From positions 1 through 40,144 of the forward strand of contig CAYNQI010000009.1 in NCBI GenBank assembly GCA_964399335.1: 40,144 bases of DNA. The letters run 5' to 3'. Source of the stretch: an uncultured Thermoplasmata archaeon. GTDB taxonomy: Archaea; Thermoplasmatota; Thermoplasmata; Halarchaeoplasmatales; Halarchaeoplasmataceae. Below are positions 24,012 to 31,873 of this stretch, piece after piece (position 1 is the first letter of the stretch; each line of letters opens with the position of its first letter). Position numbers and translations under genes: made by a program. The notes under the pieces were generated by a model. That model was not told the DNA's origin, made no database searches, and saw nothing but the letters and a program-made list of their open reading frames with translations.

Positions 24012-26678
24012 TCACTCACCTCCTTTCATAGCCCTGAACTCTGTCATCACGTCGTCCATATCAACAGCTTCTCCACGTTTACTCCTCTGTGGATCGACCC
24101 CGTCTTCACCATATTCGAACTGGATGATAGTGTCTGCCGTATTCCTCACAGTACCATCTCTAGAAACCATCAGATCTTCAAGAGCATTGATCAAACGTCT
24201 CTGCATGTAACCTGACCGGCTCGTTCTGACCGCAGTATCAACCAACCCTTCTCTACCACCCATACTGTGGAAGAAATATTCTAAAGGATCTAAACCGTCT
24301 TTATATGAGGATTTTACAAAGCCGCGGGATTTCGCACCCAATTCACCCTTCTTGAAATGTACTAGAGTTCTCTCATCGTAACCTCTTTTAGGTCGCTCAC
24401 CTCTAACAGCTTGCTGACCTAGAGCTCCAGCCATCTGGGTTAAGTTCAACATACTCGCTCGTGCGCCAGTACGTGCCATAACTACTGCATTATTACCCAT
24501 ACCTAGATGTCTAGAGGCTATCTTACCGGCTTCGTCTCTAGCTTTACCTAGTTCCTTCATAATCCTGACCTCTAACGTCTCTTCTAAAGACCTTCCAGGC
24601 ATACCTTCTAAATCTCCATCTTTATAGGCTTCAACTAGCTTGCGGACTTTGATTTCAGCCTTATCCATAACAGCTTTGATCTGTTTTTGGGCCTTCCTCG
24701 GAACGTCCTCATCCTGTATACTAGTTGTGAATCCTCTTAATGTGATCGAACCCAATGCGATATTTGTGATCTTGTCTATAAATTCCCTAGCTACATCATT
24801 ACCAAAGTCCCTAGCAAGTTTATCAACGATATTACCTGCAAATGCCCCAACTGCATCTTCATCTATGGTTCCAGAAATAAGTTTGCCATCATTTATCTTA
24901 ACATAAGCATCGTGTTCACAATCTTCTAACTGACATTCATCACACTTCTCGCAGATCGACGCTCTGAACTCTATGTTAAGTCCGTCTGGTAAGAAGTGGG
25001 TGAAGATATCTTTTCCGTGCCAATATCTTTCACCATCGATCTCAACAGACTCGGGAAATTTATCTGTAACCAAATTTGAGAAGATTCCTACCACTTCTCT
25101 TCTGGAGAAGAGTGGATTCTTGTACGTCAAGAAGAATAAACCGCTTATATGGTCCTGGATAGCACCTATAATAGGACCACCGAACCTAGGTGACAAAATA
25201 TTCTCTTGAACACGCATGATGACCTTGGCTTCAGCTCTTGCTTCTTCACTCTGTAGAACGTGAAGATTCATCTCATCGCCATCAAAGTCAGCATTGTAAG
25301 GTGGACAAACTGCTAAGTTCAATCTGAAGGTTTTACCGGGTACTATCTTGACTTCATGGGCCATCATCGACATCTTATGTAGTGATGGTTGACGGTTGAA
25401 AAGGACCACATCGCCGTCTTTAAGCTCTCTTTCTACAACAAATCCAGGCTCTAACTTTTCAGCTACTGTTTCGGCATTGGTCTCTGTAACCCTGATCCTT
25501 CTACCATCCGGCCTTATGATGTAATTAGCACCAGGTAAGTAATTACCTCTCTCTCTAGGTTCCGGACCTCTTGCCACTAATTCCCTAACATATTCTATAT
25601 TAGATGCAGTAACATTTAATGGAACGGTCAATTCTCTAGCGGCCTTCTCGGGTACACCGACCTCATTGATAGAAAGCCATGGGTCCGGAGAGATAACGGT
25701 TCTAGAAGAGAAATTGACTCTTTTACCACTCAAATTTTGTCTGAACCTACCTTCCTTACCTTTCAACCGCTGGATCAATGTCTTCAAAGTCCTTCCACTC
25801 CTATGTCTAGCCGGTGGAATTCCAGAAGTCTGGTTATCAAAATAAGTAGTAACATGATACTGTAGGAGATCCCAAAGGTCTTCAACGATGAGCTGAGGTG
25901 AACCGATATCCCTGTTCTCCCTCAACCTCTGATTGATCCGTAATATGTCAACTAGTTTGTGTGTTAGATCGTCCTCGGATCTATCTCCAGATTCCAGTGT
26001 GATCGAAGGGCGCACCGTTACCGGCGGGACCAACAAAACAGAAAGAACCAACCATTCTGGTCTAACAACATCTGGATTCATACCTAATGGTCTAAGATCA
26101 TCATCTGGGATCTTTTCCAATCTTGAACGGACTTCTTTGGGAGTGAGCTTGGCATTATCCTCTCTAAATGTAGTGGGTTTGTCAAGCATTATCTTCTGTT
26201 GTTCTTCTTTACAGTGTGGACAAACTTTGTTCCTTCTAGCTTTCTTAGATACATCCTTAGCTAACTTTCTGATATCTAAAGAATCAGCTCCCATCTCCTC
26301 CATCTGGTCCATCTGGTCTTTATATTCAACTATCTCCTCTTCAGGAAGCAGCACTCTACCACAGGCACGGCAGGTAGATCTTAAAAATTTCTTGATCTCT
26401 TTAACATATCCTGCATGGATTACCGGCATGGCCAATTCTATACGTCCAAAATGGCCAGAACATTGATCAACCCGTCCACCACAGGTCTTACACCTCAAAC
26501 CTGGTTCTATAACACCTAGGTGGGTGTCCATCAAACCCATATCGATAGGGAAACCATCGTCATCATAGGTATCAGGTGTGATTATCTTGGTGGCAGATAA
26601 GTTTCTGATCTCCTCTGGGGACATGTATGCGAACTTTATACTATTTACCCTTTTCGAAATTCCACCGGATCCTCTCAT
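24012..26678 (-). CDS. rpoA1: RNA polymerase subunit A' (Rpo1N)
   Basis: [28 protein letters not shown], catalytic [27 protein letters not shown]. Confidence 0.98.
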
Positions 26679-29600
26679 TTCAAATCCTCCAATTGTAATC
26701 TCATAGCCACTCCAAGTGACCTCAACTCATCCATCAATAATTTGAAAGCATAACTTGTCTGTATCTGGTGGACATCTGATTTTTCACCACATACGGGACA
26801 TCTCAATTCGCCATTGCTATCCATGATAGCAACGTGACCACAGTCTGGATTACCACAGATGAATTCAGTAGTCCCATCGGATTGATCAAGTAATCTATCC
26901 TTGATGACCATTGCAGTACCATGTCCTATCAGACAATCTCTTTCCATCTCACCGAACCTTAGACCACCCTGTCTTGAACGACCCTCGGTAGGCTGTCTAG
27001 TCAAGATCTGAACAGGCCCTCTAGAACGCATATGCAGCTTACCTGAAACCATATGATGTAATTTCTGGTAATATATAACACCAACAAATATCTCAGACTG
27101 CAACATCTTTCCGGTACGTCCATCGTATAAAACTTCAGTACCATTATGTTTGAACCCGGCATTTTCTAATGATTTTCTAATCGCTTCTTCAGTTTCACCA
27201 CTGAACGGGGTACCATCTATGAATCTCCCTTCTAATGAACCTACTTTACCGCCCAACATCTCCAGTACGTGAGCTACTGTCATCCTCGATGGGATCGCGT
27301 GAGGGTTCAATATAAGATCAGGAACCGTCCCGTTCTCAGTAAATGGAAGGTCTTCCGGTTCTACCAACTTTCCGATAACTCCTTTCTGACCGTGTCTAGA
27401 AGCGAATTTATCACCGAGTTCTGGAACTCTCTGGTCTCGAACTTTAGCCTTCACTAATCTACTTCCATCTTCAGATTCTGTAAGCATCACGGTATCCACC
27501 CATCCCTTCTCTCTCGGTCTGACGATCTTAGAGGTCTCCCTTCTTTTCTGTGGTGCCATGAAATCCGTATCTTCTTCAAGGAATCTAGGTGGAGATGTCT
27601 TTCCAACTAATACATCACTTCCTTCGACTCTAGTTTCTGGATTTATGAGTCCACCATCATCAAGATGCTTATAGAATTGATCACTCCTGGCACCTCTAAC
27701 ATCTGGATCAGGTATTTCAAAATGATCTTCTTGGCCACCTGGATATCTTCTTTCTTCCGTAGTATATGTTCTAAAGAATGTTGAACGTGCTAATCCTCTA
27801 TCTATAGCTGCTCGGTTCATAACTAAAGCATCTTCCATGTTATAACCTTGATAGGACATAACGGCTACTACGAAATTCTGACCTGCTGGACGTTTATTAA
27901 AATTCACCAAGTCCATGGTCTTTGTTTGTAACAATGGTTTCTGAGGATAATGCATAAGATGTTCCCGGGTATCAGGTCTTTGTCTGTAATTAGATGATGG
28001 TAGTCCTAAGGATTGCTTCATCATGTTAGCCCCCATTGAACATCGAGGAGCGGCGTTGTGTTCAGCATAAGGAACTATGCCTGTAGAGGCACCTAATATA
28101 AGCAATGGATCGACTTCAAGATGAGTATGATCATCTTCTATCAAATTGTCTCTTTTCATCAGTCCTCCACACTTATGACACTCGACCTCAGCTATATCTT
28201 CACCCTGGCCCATATTGAGCCAAGATATATCAGCTTCCGAAAGGGGAGAATCACATTCATCACATAATGATGGGATCTCAAAAGGATAAAGAGCGACATA
28301 GATGTCCTCTTCTTCTTCAGCATCGATCCATTCGATTATGTTTTCTTCGAAAAGTTCGCTCATCCTTGTCTTTCCTTCCAATAGTTCATCCAATCCCTCT
28401 TTTGTAAGGTTGATATCTCCATCTTCAACGATCAATAAGGGTCTCCTTACTCTACCTTCGTCACAATTCAATATGACTTCACCCATTGTATGGTCGTATC
28501 TAACGTTAACTTGATCGGATATCATCCCATGCCTTCTTTCACGCCTTACATTGTCAACGAATTCATGGGGGTCTTCTACCAAACCTATAAGGTCACCATT
28601 GAGGTATACTTTTATCCCGGCCTCACTACCCTGACTCATCTGTTCCAAACCGATATCATACAATTTCCACCTTACTTCCATGGGTTCAGTACCTTTGGAT
28701 ACATCAACTATCAAAGCAGACGTTTTTACAAGGCCACAATTCTGACCTTCAGGTGTTTCGTTTGGACATAATCTACCCCAATGTGTCGCGTGAAGTTCTC
28801 TAGCTTCAAAATGAGGTTGACTTCTAGATAACGGTGATTTAACCCTTCTAAGATGACTTATAGTACTCATATTTGAAGTCCTATCTAATAATTGTGAAAT
28901 GCCAGTACGGCCACCTACCCAGTTACCTGTAGCCATGGCGTGCTGTAGCTTGTTCTTCATAAGGTCCGGTCTGATCGATGATTTTATACGGACCTCGCCT
29001 TTCTTACCGTAATTTCTTTCCAGTTGATACTTTAAGTCCTTTAATAGATTGACCACTGAAACTCTAAAAAGATCTGCCATCAAGTCACCAGAGAGTTTCA
29101 ATCTTTTGTTTGCGTAATGATCTTTATCATCTGATTCTCTATGACCTGCTTTAAGTTCTAATATAGCTCTAGCCATCCTTCCTAGGAATACCGCTTTCTT
29201 CATCCTATCTTCTTTGTGATTTCCTAGATGAGGCAGCAATGAGCGGTCCAATATAGAATCAATTTTACGCTGTCTGTATTCTTCAGCTTGACCGGTGGCA
29301 AATTTTTTCTCTAGATAGGCCATGGCGTCTTCTTGATTATAAACACCTTCAGGTGAATAATCTTCTTCCTCTTGACACATCTCGATATTTGCAAATATGA
29401 TACTGGACATATCTTCGTCAGTTGTCATGGAATTAAAGATCTCCTGATCGTTCTCCATACCCAGTGCTTTCATCAATATGACTACGGGTATATCTCCTCT
29501 AGCTGAAGGAACTGAAACGGTTATTAGACCATCCTTTTTCTTTTCCATTACTGTTAATGCTCTGTATCCATGACGCTGTGAAAATATCTTTGCAACCTCA

Positions 29601-30298
29601 ATCTCCCTACCATATTTCTCATTGATCTCACACATAACCCTGTTCGAAGCCATATCCTCTACGGCCATAAGACTCCTTTCAGTACCGCTTACTACGAAAT
29701 ATCCCTGTGGATCGTGAGGATCTTCTCCCAGCATCTTTAACTTGTCCCGGTATGCTTTTTCTTCGTATTCAGGACTGTTTATATCCACATTCAAAATTTC
29801 CTCTGCTGTACTGTCGATATTATCAGGATGCAAATTACATTTCTTTGAGCCTATCATTATCGGAATCTGACCTATAGGTATCCACTGAGGTTCTTCTTCG
29901 ATTCCATCTTTAATGATGCTCATCCTCATCTCGATCTTAGCACTGTAGTATAGATCCCTCAACCTAGCTTCCTGAGGGGTTAATTTGTGTTCGGAACCAG
30001 TGGCTTCTTTGACAGTAGGTCTTTTTATCCTGAGGGTACGTTCAGAATTTGGATCAACTCTCCCGTCTTCAGTCCTTTCTCTGCCTACTCTGATCTCGAT
30101 CTCCTGGCCGTCTACTTTCTCGGGGTTTAACCTGATCTTGCCCCAACCACCTTCACCGTAACCTATCCTGATATTATCGATGATCTTCTGAGCCCTGCTG
30201 TTTGGATTGTCCATAGAGGGAAGAAAATCGTTAAAGGATTCCAGATGATGACTAACCACACTAATTTCTCGAAAGAAACTGTCAACTAATTCTCTCAT
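26675..30298 (-). CDS. rpoB: RNA polymerase subunit B (Rpo2, unsplit)
   Basis: ETPEGQNCGLVK, GDKFASRHGQKG, RQPTEGRSRQGGLRFGEMERD, C-terminal Zn ribbon. Single 1207-aa ORF. Confidence 0.98.
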   Translation of the reverse strand: MRELVDSFFREISVVSHHLESFNDFLPSMDNPNSRAQKIIDNIRIGYGEGGWGKIRLNPEKVDGQEIEIRVGRERTEDGRVDPNSERTLRIKRPTVKEATGSEHKLTPQEARLRDLYYSAKIEMRMSIIKDGIEEEPQWIPIGQIPIMIGSKKCNLHPDNIDSTAEEILNVDINSPEYEEKAYRDKLKMLGEDPHDPQGYFVVSGTERSLMAVEDMASNRVMCEINEKYGREIEVAKIFSQRHGYRALTVMEKKKDGLITVSVPSARGDIPVVILMKALGMENDQEIFNSMTTDEDMSSIIFANIEMCQEEEDYSPEGVYNQEDAMAYLEKKFATGQAEEYRQRKIDSILDRSLLPHLGNHKEDRMKKAVFLGRMARAILELKAGHRESDDKDHYANKRLKLSGDLMADLFRVSVVNLLKDLKYQLERNYGKKGEVRIKSSIRPDLMKNKLQHAMATGNWVGGRTGISQLLDRTSNMSTISHLRRVKSPLSRSQPHFEARELHATHWGRLCPNETPEGQNCGLVKTSALIVDVSKGTEPMEVRWKLYDIGLEQMSQGSEAGIKVYLNGDLIGLVEDPHEFVDNVRRERRHGMISDQVNVRYDHTMGEVILNCDEGRVRRPLLIVEDGDINLTKEGLDELLEGKTRMSELFEENIIEWIDAEEEEDIYVALYPFEIPSLCDECDSPLSEADISWLNMGQGEDIAEVECHKCGGLMKRDNLIEDDHTHLEVDPLLILGASTGIVPYAEHNAAPRCSMGANMMKQSLGLPSSNYRQRPDTREHLMHYPQKPLLQTKTMDLVNFNKRPAGQNFVVAVMSYQGYNMEDALVMNRAAIDRGLARSTFFRTYTTEERRYPGGQEDHFEIPDPDVRGARSDQFYKHLDDGGLINPETRVEGSDVLVGKTSPPRFLEEDTDFMAPQKRRETSKIVRPREKGWVDTVMLTESEDGSRLVKAKVRDQRVPELGDKFASRHGQKGVIGKLVEPEDLPFTENGTVPDLILNPHAIPSRMTVAHVLEMLGGKVGSLEGRFIDGTPFSGETEEAIRKSLENAGFKHNGTEVLYDGRTGKMLQSEIFVGVIYYQKLHHMVSGKLHMRSRGPVQILTRQPTEGRSRQGGLRFGEMERDCLIGHGTAMVIKDRLLDQSDGTTEFICGNPDCGHVAIMDSNGELRCPVCGEKSDVHQIQTSYAFKLLMDELRSLGVAMRLQLEDLK

Positions 30299-30319: not shown

Positions 30320-30574
30320 CTATCTACTTATTACCAACCTATACACTTTCGCTACACCAGCTGTTTTACTTTCTCGTATAACTTCGATCATCCTACCTTC
30401 CTCAATGTCCCCATGCATCTTCTCCATATGTTCAATAACTGGATCACTTTTTAGAATTTTAGGAAGGTCTTGTTTACCAACTTCCAAGCCTTCTAATATC
30501 TCCTGTTCATCTTCCTTAGGTACGAGATGGTGCTCTGGTACGAATCCGTGTTTCATAACATTGAATTTACCCAT
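30320..30574 (-). CDS. rpoH: RNA polymerase subunit H (Rpo5)
   Basis: HGFVPEH, LPKILKSDPV, IRESKTAG..KVYRLV. Confidence 0.95.
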   Translation of the reverse strand: MGKFNVMKHGFVPEHHLVPKEDEQEILEGLEVGKQDLPKILKSDPVIEHMEKMHGDIEEGRMIEVIRESKTAGVAKVYRLVISR

Positions 30575-30651
30575 TGTTTACCCCCGATTTTGAATTTGTT
30601 TTTTCCATGATAGATACCACTCTCGATTTTTTTAAGATGGGCCTGTGGGGA

Positions 30652-30680
30652 TTTCCGTGAACTGCCTGACAGCAACTCTA
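30652..30680 (-). other. tRNA intron 2 (29 nt) at T-loop position 59/60
   Basis: BHB motif: outer helix is the T stem, central helix TTCG/CGGA (one G-U), bulges AA|T and AA|T, intron hairpin GAGTTGCT-GTCA-GGCAGTTC. Confidence 0.88.
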
Positions 30681-30719
30681 TTCGAACCCCAGACCACCTG
30701 GTTAAAAGCCAGGTGCTCT

Positions 30720-30750
30720 TTCTAGAGAAAGAGCAAGTTAGCTCTATCTT
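30720..30750 (-). other. tRNA intron 1 (31 nt) at D-loop position 20/21
   Basis: BHB motif: central helix CTAG/CTAG, bulges GT|A and AA|A, intron helix AGATAGAGC/GCTCTTTCT. Confidence 0.88.
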
Positions 30751-30808
30751 ACCTAGCTGAGCTACAGGCCCTATTTTAAGCAGTGTTTTAGCACCTAGAA
30801 GTAACTAT

Positions 30809-30816
30809 TATATAAA
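30809..30816 (-). promoter_or_regulatory. TATA box of tRNA-Lys
   Basis: TTTATATA on the minus strand, 38-45 nt upstream of the mature tRNA 5' end. Confidence 0.6.
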
Positions 30817-30949: not shown

Positions 30950-31873
30950 TTAAAAGAAGGTTTTTACAGGATATTCAGCACTAGCTAAACCACTTAAACT
31001 AAACTTTTTACTATCTATATTGACTTTTAAAACGTACTTACCTTTTAATAGATTTAGTTTCAACAAGGGAATTATCTTAAAAATATCAATTTCTAATAGA
31101 TCTTTACGATTTACATCTAATTCTAAATAAACATCCATATCATCTTTATTGGCTGCTACTTCATATGATGAAGGCAGTCCATGGTCATACTTGACTTCTA
31201 AATCGTATTTTGGTGAGTTAAATAAGTATGTGTTTTTACCCTTGGAAAAATAGATTTTTCCTTCACCACTATCACGTAACTCAAAAAGAGTAAAACCCAT
31301 GGGTTTGTCATCTGTTTTACCTTCAAGTCTGATCCAATGCCAGGGATTTTTAGAAAATTTACAATTTCCATAGTTCGAATCGTGATAACCTAGACCTTTT
31401 ACCCTTACACTCTTTTCATCTATTTTGACAGAGCCTTCTACCCCTGCAAGATTACTAAAAACATCCCACCCCATCCATCGATCACTTGATTTGATAGAAT
31501 ATCTCGAAGTACCGCCGGTTTGGATATTTTTAAATTTGAGACTCCACTTTAAATCGGAGGTATGCCCGATTATATTCCAACCTGATCTTGTTTTTTTGAT
31601 CCTAAAGTCTTTAAATACCCATGTTTCAGAACTGGATAGATTGCATGATTTACCATCTACAGTATATTGGCCTATTTTTGAATCACCTTCACTGTAAATC
31701 GCATATGAGATGATGCCTTTCCTTAAACCGAATATGTTCCTAGGGTTCCCAATTGAATAACAAAAAAAACCGCTGACCCTATCAGATCTAAAGGAAAAAT
31801 ATTTCCATTCAACATATCGAAAATCATCAAAATTTCCTGAAAGATCTTTTTTAAATCTCCAATCGTCTTCCAT
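30950..31873 (-). CDS. CrtC/AttH/tocopherol-cyclase-like beta-barrel protein
   Basis: N-terminal EWKYF, W/aromatic-rich beta strands, VEGSVKI....V.VKGLGYHDSNYG followed by W.W, as in the hydroxyneurosporene synthase/AttH/tocopherol cyclase superfamily. Confidence 0.55.
   Translation of the reverse strand: MEDDWRFKKDLSGNFDDFRYVEWKYFSFRSDRVSGFFCYSIGNPRNIFGLRKGIISYAIYSEGDSKIGQYTVDGKSCNLSSSETWVFKDFRIKKTRSGWNIIGHTSDLKWSLKFKNIQTGGTSRYSIKSSDRWMGWDVFSNLAGVEGSVKIDEKSVRVKGLGYHDSNYGNCKFSKNPWHWIRLEGKTDDKPMGFTLFELRDSGEGKIYFSKGKNTYLFNSPKYDLEVKYDHGLPSSYEVAANKDDMDVYLELDVNRKDLLEIDIFKIIPLLKLNLLKGKYVLKVNIDSKKFSLSGLASAEYPVKTFF

Follow-up and report, generated by a model that had tools for sequence, protein, structure and literature searches.

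A twice-interrupted tRNA-Lys(UUU) gene with predicted D-loop and T-loop introns in a Thermoplasmata archaeon encoding a two-unit splicing endonuclease

Directly upstream of the RNA polymerase genes rpoH and rpoB, a DNA stretch of 40,144 nucleotides from an uncultured Thermoplasmata archaeon (assembly GCA_964399335.1, contig CAYNQI010000009.1; hereafter the window) contains a segment which can be read, on the minus strand from 30771 to 30638, as three exons of 21, 39 and 14 nt separated by two inserts of 31 and 29 nt. The locus raises the question of whether it is a working gene for tRNA-Lys(UUU) and, if so, how inserts placed within the D-loop and the T-loop could be removed from its transcript. 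The features of the region are listed below.

30809-30816, minus strand: TATA-box-like TTTATATA, preceded by a purine-rich stretch and lying 38-45 nt upstream of the tRNA 5' end
30751-30771, minus strand: exon 1, tRNA positions 1-20 (acceptor 5' strand, D-stem 5' strand, D-loop to U20)
30720-30750, minus strand: predicted intron 1, 31 nt, at site 20/21 (D-loop), with a relaxed HBh' motif
30681-30719, minus strand: exon 2, positions 21-59 (D-stem 3' strand through T-loop to A59)
30652-30680, minus strand: predicted intron 2, 29 nt, at site 59/60 (T-loop), with a strict hBHBh' motif
30638-30651, minus strand: exon 3, positions 60-73 (U60, T-stem 3' strand, acceptor 3' strand, discriminator A73)
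30575-30637, minus strand: tRNA-rpoH spacer, 63 nt, with no run of four or more T
30320-30574, minus strand: rpoH (RNA polymerase subunit H/Rpb5 C-terminal domain, 84 aa; Pfam PF01191)
26675-30298, after rpoH: rpoB, unsplit, with Rpb2 domains (Pfam)

Exon 2 comprises the 3' strand of the D-stem, the whole anticodon arm with UUU, the variable loop, the 5' strand of the T-stem and part of the T-loop. ARAGORN folds the 74-mer obtained by joining the three exons into a regular cloverleaf and calls it tRNA-Lys(ttt); in standard tRNA numbering, U20/A21 and A59/U60 mark the junctions, and CCA is absent from the gene sequence. As read from the sequence, the anticodon loop is unbroken and the locus has no 37/38 intron. 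An earlier note, made from the letters alone, had proposed exactly this arrangement, with BHB introns at 20/21 and 59/60 and none at 37/38; its quotation of the minus strand matches the sequence in full, and the spliced cloverleaf agrees with it. The note had also suggested that standard scans could miss the gene, and both methods used here do so: ARAGORN called no tRNA across the whole window with the gene unspliced, no Rfam family was above threshold anywhere in the window, and in a permissive whole-genome search with the Rfam tRNA model the unspliced locus scored 17 bits, against a threshold of 29. Self-splicing introns of groups I and II have a ribozyme core of hundreds of nucleotides, which is matched by Rfam models; with their small size and no Rfam match in the window, the two inserts do not have the features of either group.

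The splice motifs were read in the register of the canonical 37/38 case, in which exon nucleotides -6 to -3 of the 5' site pair with intron nucleotides -6 to -3 of the 3' site, and the cut falls two nucleotides into each 3-nt bulge. In intron 2 the 5-bp T-stem provides the outer helix and is continuous with a 4-bp central helix, formed by U54-G57 and CGGA (one G-U pair); the bulges are AA/U and AA/U, the slash marking the cut, and the inner hairpin has 8 bp beyond one A-A mismatch. In intron 1 the central helix pairs CUAG (D-loop positions 16-18) with an intron CUAG, the 5' bulge GU/A is intact, and the inner hairpin is AGA-U-AGAGC / GCUCU-U-UCU. Its 3' site, AA/A21, is not a true bulge: with A14 and G15 opposite, it forms part of a 2x3 internal loop that the D-stem closes. 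The description given earlier for both inserts, a 4-bp central helix with two 3-nt bulges and an intron hairpin, is accurate for intron 2, while for intron 1 it has to be amended at the 3' bulge. A register shifted by 1 nt would give the same product for intron 1, but forms no central helix; since this is the only other register of equal product, the assignment to 20/21 stands. The minimum free energy fold of the precursor (-59.8 kcal/mol, z = -4.3) holds both central helices and both intron hairpins, and none of 200 shuffles was equally stable.

A BHB-like motif alone proves little, because by a relaxed rule 530,026 such patterns occur in the 1.57-Mb genome. When all of these candidates were removed as single inserts and the products submitted to ARAGORN, only canonical 37/38 introns were recovered, in tRNA-Glu(UUC), tRNA-Val(UAC) and two CAU tRNAs; the other matches were artefacts at known tRNA ends. 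Two-insert removals were then made for all nearby pairs of candidates, 6.48 million genome-wide, and the tRNA-Lys(UUU) locus was the sole genuine new tRNA among the products. A 'tRNA-Pro(UGG)' on contig C212, with inserts of 85 and 96 nt, has a poor cloverleaf and was discarded as a false positive. This SPLITS-like scan revealed no further tRNA with an intron outside 37/38 in the genome; it needs a perfect 4-bp helix and 3-nt spacing and is blind to three-intron genes and more relaxed motifs, so that the figure of one tRNA with non-canonical sites is a lower bound. Outside the window, a tRNA-Val(UAC) with a 19-nt strict-BHB intron at 37/38 (contig C1, 8954-9045) is missed by ARAGORN even in intron mode and is found by Rfam (53.5 bits) and by the splice scan. 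At another locus outside the window (contig C7, 6403-6531) ARAGORN in intron mode calls a tRNA-Ser(cga) with a 55-nt intron; BHB-guided splicing yields instead a 74-nt tRNA with a CAU anticodon (Met or Ile2).

The locus was compared by BLAST with 40 relatives, and intron lengths were obtained for 35 of them by a parsing anchored on the exons. This parsing was used in place of a strict motif rule, which failed on several relatives owing to single mismatches in the inner hairpin; two loci not cleanly parsed (G030 and G029) were left out of the tables. The whole interrupted gene is present across the family, in all of the 23 sampled genomes; intron 2 occurs in every one of them and both introns in 20. 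Exon 1 is almost unchanged in 37 relatives. Intron 1 is missing, exactly at the junction, in the three genomes of genus g2 (G005, G014, G020), and intron 2 is missing in the same exact manner in G035 and G036.

Changes within the inserts are found on both sides of the helices. In intron 1 the central helix is either CUAG/CUAG or CCAG/CUGG (U-A in 9 sequences, C-G in 13) and the inner helix AGA/UCU, GGA/UCC or AAG/CUU, all four inner pairs covarying; in the inner hairpin of intron 2, seven of the eight pairs are changed on both sides. The central helix of intron 2 keeps all four pairs in 30 of 32 intron-bearing relatives, and its 5-bp outer helix is found in all 32. Intron 1 has the HBh' form in each of the 29 relatives examined, none of which has an outer helix adjoining the 3' site. 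In an alignment of 22 sequences, evaluated against the cloverleaf plus BHB structure, 93.9% of the cells are paired and 21 pairs are changed on both sides; the observed values are reached by none of 500 shuffles, and controls in which the partner was slid are 33-54% paired. The comparison with related MAGs, which the earlier note had recommended, is thus favourable to its reading, the helices covarying and the introns being present or absent exactly at the junctions. The locus is confirmed as a genuine tRNA-Lys(UUU) gene, interrupted twice and predicted to be spliced by EndA.

Need for the gene was evaluated from the tRNA complement. ARAGORN with intron search found 26 tRNAs in the MAG, which is 80% complete, with tRNA-Lys(CUU) on contig C96. 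An intact tRNA-Lys(UUU) elsewhere, together with the lack of a spliced 74-nt product, had been named in advance as a mark of a pseudogene; ARAGORN, Rfam and BLAST detected no second copy in this 80% complete genome, only Lys(CUU), and BLAST with an intron-free orthologue, which retrieves Lys(CUU) and the exons of the present locus only, detected none in four relatives that are 95-99% complete. In relatives of this completeness about 40 tRNAs lie above the Rfam threshold, and the Lys(UUU) locus lies below it. The codons of rpoB include 41 AAA versus 28 AAG. The locus is apparently the sole tRNA-Lys(UUU) gene of the genome and its product the only tRNA reading AAA.

A TTTATATA or TTTAAATA box is located at a similar upstream distance in most of the relatives inspected, which belong both to the same family and to others. 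The TTTATATA box is probably the promoter, which would imply a leader of about 15 nt. Downstream, tRNA-Lys(UUU) precedes rpoH by 20-160 nt in 32 relatives, intron-free ones included (loci L005-L042), and the direct succession tRNA-rpoH-rpoB is found class-wide, with or without introns; in some relatives a TATA-like box lies within the spacer. The lack of an oligo-T 3' of the tRNA, remarked upon earlier, is borne out: no T-run occurs before rpoH, and the adjacency is a property of the class. Co-transcription of the tRNA with rpoH, or with the RNA polymerase operon, is plausible from this arrangement.

The distribution of the introns was studied by searching a covariance model of the precursor against 151 genomes of the class. 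Full-length matches were obtained in the sampled genomes, and their length follows the intron content, being about 134 nt in family f1, 144 in f4, about 143 in f11 (a sample of 15 genomes, one of which, G113, is unpublished and bears no claim made here), 106-120 in f8, 94 in f10 and 160-207 in several others. Sequence spot checks confirmed three introns in f12, f21 and f22, and a D-loop plus a canonical intron in f17. Intron-free matches of 74 nt are confined to f14, f18, f6 and probably f19 (the last judged by score), and include most closed genomes. Families f18 and f14, which we take to be Thermoplasmatales-like and Aciduliprofundum-like (G036) respectively, are intron-free by match length, and tRNA-Lys(UUU) has no introns in G028, the only f6 genome checked. 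The mcrA gene was found in G079, the tested member of f6; the family, as represented by this genome, is therefore methanogenic.

Outside the family of the host, but within the class, both introns are found in G026, G027, G033 and G038, intron 1 only in G035, intron 2 only in G032 and neither in G036 and G028, while G037, G039 and G031 combine both with a canonical 37/38 intron. In the majority of families of the class, tRNA-Lys(UUU) has introns at 20/21, 37/38 and 59/60 in differing combinations. A phylum-level search, supplemented by sequence checks, found the same three sites in use in 10 families belonging to other classes; some have the T-loop or the D-loop intron alone, some a D-loop plus a canonical intron, and some all three. 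The D-loop introns of these groups have in common the junction-proximal sequence A-GG...CC-CUAG-AA, and differ in their interiors. The same sites in most families, together with a shared junction-proximal sequence and diverged interiors, fit old inheritance with losses. From this distribution we read the introns as probably old and vertically inherited, with lineage-specific losses.

Secondary matches of the covariance model proved to be 59/60 introns in other tRNAs, as listed.

59/60 intron in tRNA-Arg(UCU): three f6 genomes, f4, f11
59/60 intron in tRNA-Arg(CCU): f24
59/60 intron in tRNA-Met(CAU): f29
59/60 intron in tRNA-Lys(CUU): f1 genus g8, f8, f9, f12

These introns have strict BHB motifs (loci L108-L110, L119, L120, L122, L111, L113, L116, L121, L123). 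In G023 and G034 the 59/60 intron of Lys(CUU) is 80-87% identical to the T-loop intron of Lys(UUU) in the same genome, and the two Lys genes of G023 are 92% identical in their exons; copying between isoacceptors, or gene duplication, has therefore occurred. The possible intron mobility put forward in the earlier note finds limited evidence here, namely a related 59/60 intron in tRNA-Lys(CUU) of some relatives. A separate observation concerns locus L124 (G097, contig C57), a tRNA with the anticodon loop CUUGUAA, which one splice solution makes a Thr-UGU; it contains a 32-nt insert at D-loop 20/21, and the D-loop site is therefore not exclusive to tRNA-Lys.

A single EndA ORF of 349 aa was identified in the host genome (contig C6, 5828-6874), with the N-C-N-C layout PF02778-PF01974-PF02778-PF01974. 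Only the C-terminal unit has the Tyr-His-Lys triad; in the N-terminal unit Phe and Pro occupy the Tyr and His positions, and this pattern is kept in 18 orthologues. Although it has lost the catalytic Tyr and His, the N-terminal unit gives a good alignment with the alpha subunit of M. jannaschii. By its two tandem units, of which the C-terminal one is predicted to be catalytic, the gene is of the alpha'2 type, and the protein presumably acts as a homodimer; its structural unit is full-length, whereas those of the A. fulgidus and T. acidophilum alpha'2 enzymes are not. Within the structural unit, at the expected catalytic His loop, lies a clade-conserved PRGGxPxKTPxKYW stretch (orthologues L052-L079), absent at that position from the aligned M. 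jannaschii and M. kandleri sequences. An RtcB gene is located on contig C33 (8304-9608). A search for EndA in named genome records returned six loci, four in MAGs named Thermoplasmata or Thermoplasmatota archaeon and two, weak matches at 28% identity, in Bathyarchaeia MAGs; the closest named relatives accord with the Thermoplasmatota host surmised from the sequence at the outset.

The best solved match of EndA is the artificially fused beta-alpha M. kandleri enzyme (5x89), aligned over the full length with E = 6e-40. Aligned pairwise with M. jannaschii 1a79 and with M. kandleri 5x89, the catalytic unit has no insertion larger than one residue, so that none of the CSL (L1), ASL (L2) and L3 loops described in PMC5829648 is present. 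A second EndA gene was found neither in the host genome (80% complete) nor in five relatives at least 95% complete. The hallmarks of broad-specificity enzymes, i.e. separate alpha and beta genes or a three-unit chain, together with an inserted specific loop bearing the key lysine, are lacking in this EndA. A single chain of two units, aligned to the strict M. jannaschii enzyme without insertions, it belongs to neither the (alpha-beta)2 nor the epsilon2 type.

We propose, with a probability of about 0.9, that the locus is a functional and apparently sole tRNA-Lys(UUU) gene, whose two introns are spliced by EndA and RtcB. Transcription from its own TATA promoter would produce a core precursor of about 134 nt, in which D-loop nucleotides 16-18 and T-loop nucleotides 54-57 would pair, each set with the 3' portion of its neighbouring intron, giving rise to two BHB-type motifs. 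The single two-unit EndA would cut two nucleotides into each 3-nt unpaired stretch, for a total of four sites, the RtcB ligase would join the three exons, and RNase P, RNase Z and the CCA-adding enzyme would complete the 74-nt tRNA. Splicing, cut sites, ligation, processing steps and promoter are all inferred from the sequence. The T-loop motif, being a strict hBHBh', needs no relaxed specificity and should be accepted by any archaeal EndA. The D-loop motif is an HBh', and the only closure at its 3' site is the D-stem, at a distance of two nucleotides; this motif would most likely be cut by the same loop-less EndA, perhaps less efficiently.

The D-loop intron has to be set against what is published on these enzymes. 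According to reviews, alpha4 and alpha'2 enzymes cut only canonical motifs (PMC4033280; PMC5829648), and motifs of the HBh' type are said to need CSL, ASL or L3 loops (PMC5829648). In published assays in vitro, a D-loop HBh' intron at 20b/21 was poorly removed by two loop-less enzymes, the A. fulgidus alpha'2 enzyme and the fused M. kandleri EndA (PMC5829648), so that an efficient removal of intron 1 by the present EndA is not assured. It would be a bold and rather unlikely supposition that this two-unit enzyme cuts the D-loop HBh' efficiently, through a recognition that dispenses with CSL, ASL and L3 inserts; such recognition might read the D-stem or the tertiary frame of the pre-tRNA, or use the PRGGxPxKTPxKYW stretch. 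If true, this would define a further functional class of archaeal splicing endonuclease, and contradict the published rule by which such introns are handled by loop-bearing enzymes alone.

Three other explanations of the locus were weighed. The earlier note attributed to the lineage a relaxed-specificity endonuclease, and in its stronger form this explanation holds that such an enzyme has evolved and that the D-loop intron is tolerated only because of it. The D-loop intron alone raises the question, by its constant HBh' form without an outer helix by the 3' site (29 of 29 relatives) and by the stated need of such motifs for CSL, ASL or L3 loops (PMC5829648); the full-length structural unit, with its clade-conserved PRGGxPxKTPxKYW, would also suit a modified enzyme. 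The two-unit, loop-less architecture gives the idea no support, however: the catalytic unit is free of insertions above one residue relative to the strict M. jannaschii alpha subunit, the protein matches the loop-less M. kandleri enzyme over the full length, and M. kandleri already pairs a loop-less enzyme with a D-loop HBh' intron. Moreover, one tRNA of the genome has a non-canonical site, whereas lineages with a broad-specificity EndA usually have many disrupted tRNAs (PMC5829648). We hold this explanation possible but doubtful.

Recent mobile introns, repeatedly gained at the same sites and kept as a protection against integrating elements, are a still less probable origin. They would account for the 80-87% identity between the Lys(CUU) and Lys(UUU) 59/60 introns within G023 and G034, and for the 59/60 introns in tRNA-Arg(UCU), Arg(CCU) and Met(CAU) of other families; but the interruption of one and the same tRNA at these two positions, seen in the majority of families of the class and again in other classes, fits old inheritance with losses, and where the exons are 92% identical as well, as in G023, duplication or gene conversion explains the shared intron equally well. 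That the locus is a decaying pseudogene, or a tRNA carrying unspliced D- and T-loop insertions, would agree with its score under the Rfam threshold and is hardly credible on every other count, since the exons are nearly unchanged and the variation of the inserts includes compensatory changes by which the splice motif is preserved, the inserts are missing exactly at the junctions in related genomes, the locus is the only tRNA able to read AAA, and the promoter box is conserved. The functional, twice-spliced gene is accordingly the reading preferred here.

The gene is a known kind of element, barely documented in the Thermoplasmatota lineage. The pre-tRNA-Glu(UUC) of M. kandleri has an HBh' intron at 20b/21 and a 37/38 intron (Kaneta et al. 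2018, PMC5829648); it shares with the present gene a euryarchaeal-type host, a D-loop HBh' intron at essentially the same site and the presence of several introns. It differs in that the second intron lies at 37/38 rather than in the T-loop; the host tRNA is here Lys(UUU), with a phylum-wide arrangement, and the M. kandleri EndA is encoded by separate alpha and beta genes, as opposed to a natural single two-unit chain. In ARMAN-2 (Candidatus Micrarchaeum), pre-tRNA-Pro(GGG) has strict hBHBh' motifs at 53/54 and 59/60 (Fujishima et al. 2011, PMC3239211) and pre-tRNA-Cys(GCA) a relaxed hBH at 59/60 (PMC3239211). The T-loop position and the strict BHB built on T-stem and T-loop are the same as here, while the ARMAN-2 EndA is a three-unit epsilon2 enzyme with a specific loop, in contrast to the two units without loop of the present one. 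In Thermoproteales a gene may contain as many as three BHB introns, and several non-canonical positions are used (PMC4033280, PMC8450103). Several such introns in one tRNA gene are a feature in common; in Thermoproteales, however, many tRNAs are affected and EndA is an (alpha-beta)2 enzyme with CSL, whereas here one tRNA is affected at non-canonical sites.

For the class itself, the tRNAscan-SE 2.0 census has entries for 3 Methanomassiliicoccales genomes, with 6 non-canonical introns and one gene containing two introns, and for 5 Thermoplasmatales genomes, with 1 non-canonical intron; in 144 Euryarchaeota it lists no three-intron gene (PMC8450103, Table S7). The entries for the two orders concern the same class as the host, but are counts only. 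The multi-intron tRNAs reviewed to date are from Crenarchaeota, N. equitans, M. kandleri, M. thermautotrophicus, Korarchaeum and ARMAN (PMC4033280; PMC5829648). In the searchable literature no descriptive paper was found on non-canonical tRNA introns of Thermoplasmata or Methanomassiliicoccales, or on a tRNA-Lys(UUU) with D-loop and T-loop introns, and a preprint with an Asgard intron census does not mention the phylum Thermoplasmatota. The novelty claimed in the earlier note was made to depend on such introns being neither common nor already documented in Thermoplasmata: they are common in the phylum, and their documentation in searchable papers consists of the census counts cited above.

Since ARAGORN and Rfam miss the gene, annotations relying on them would lack the only AAA-reading tRNA. 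The same gap would apply to many relatives with an interrupted gene, and would distort assessments of tRNA complement and of genome completeness. An essential tRNA with a relaxed D-loop intron and a loop-less EndA coexist in these organisms, apparently over a long evolutionary period, and form a natural setting in which the proposal that intron motifs and EndA architecture have coevolved can be put to the test. The way in which an EndA of two units, lacking the loops, deals with a conserved relaxed D-loop motif is the key testable point of the locus. One tRNA interrupted at three fixed sites phylum-wide, in genomes whose other tRNAs have introns at 37/38 only, argues for ancient site-specific retention rather than random insertion.

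On the other side of the tRNA promoter, just upstream of it, the window contains an ORF of 307 aa (30950-31873, minus strand), which matches no Pfam family at E <= 0.001; the neighbours of this ORF encode a class I SAM methyltransferase and a radical SAM protein.
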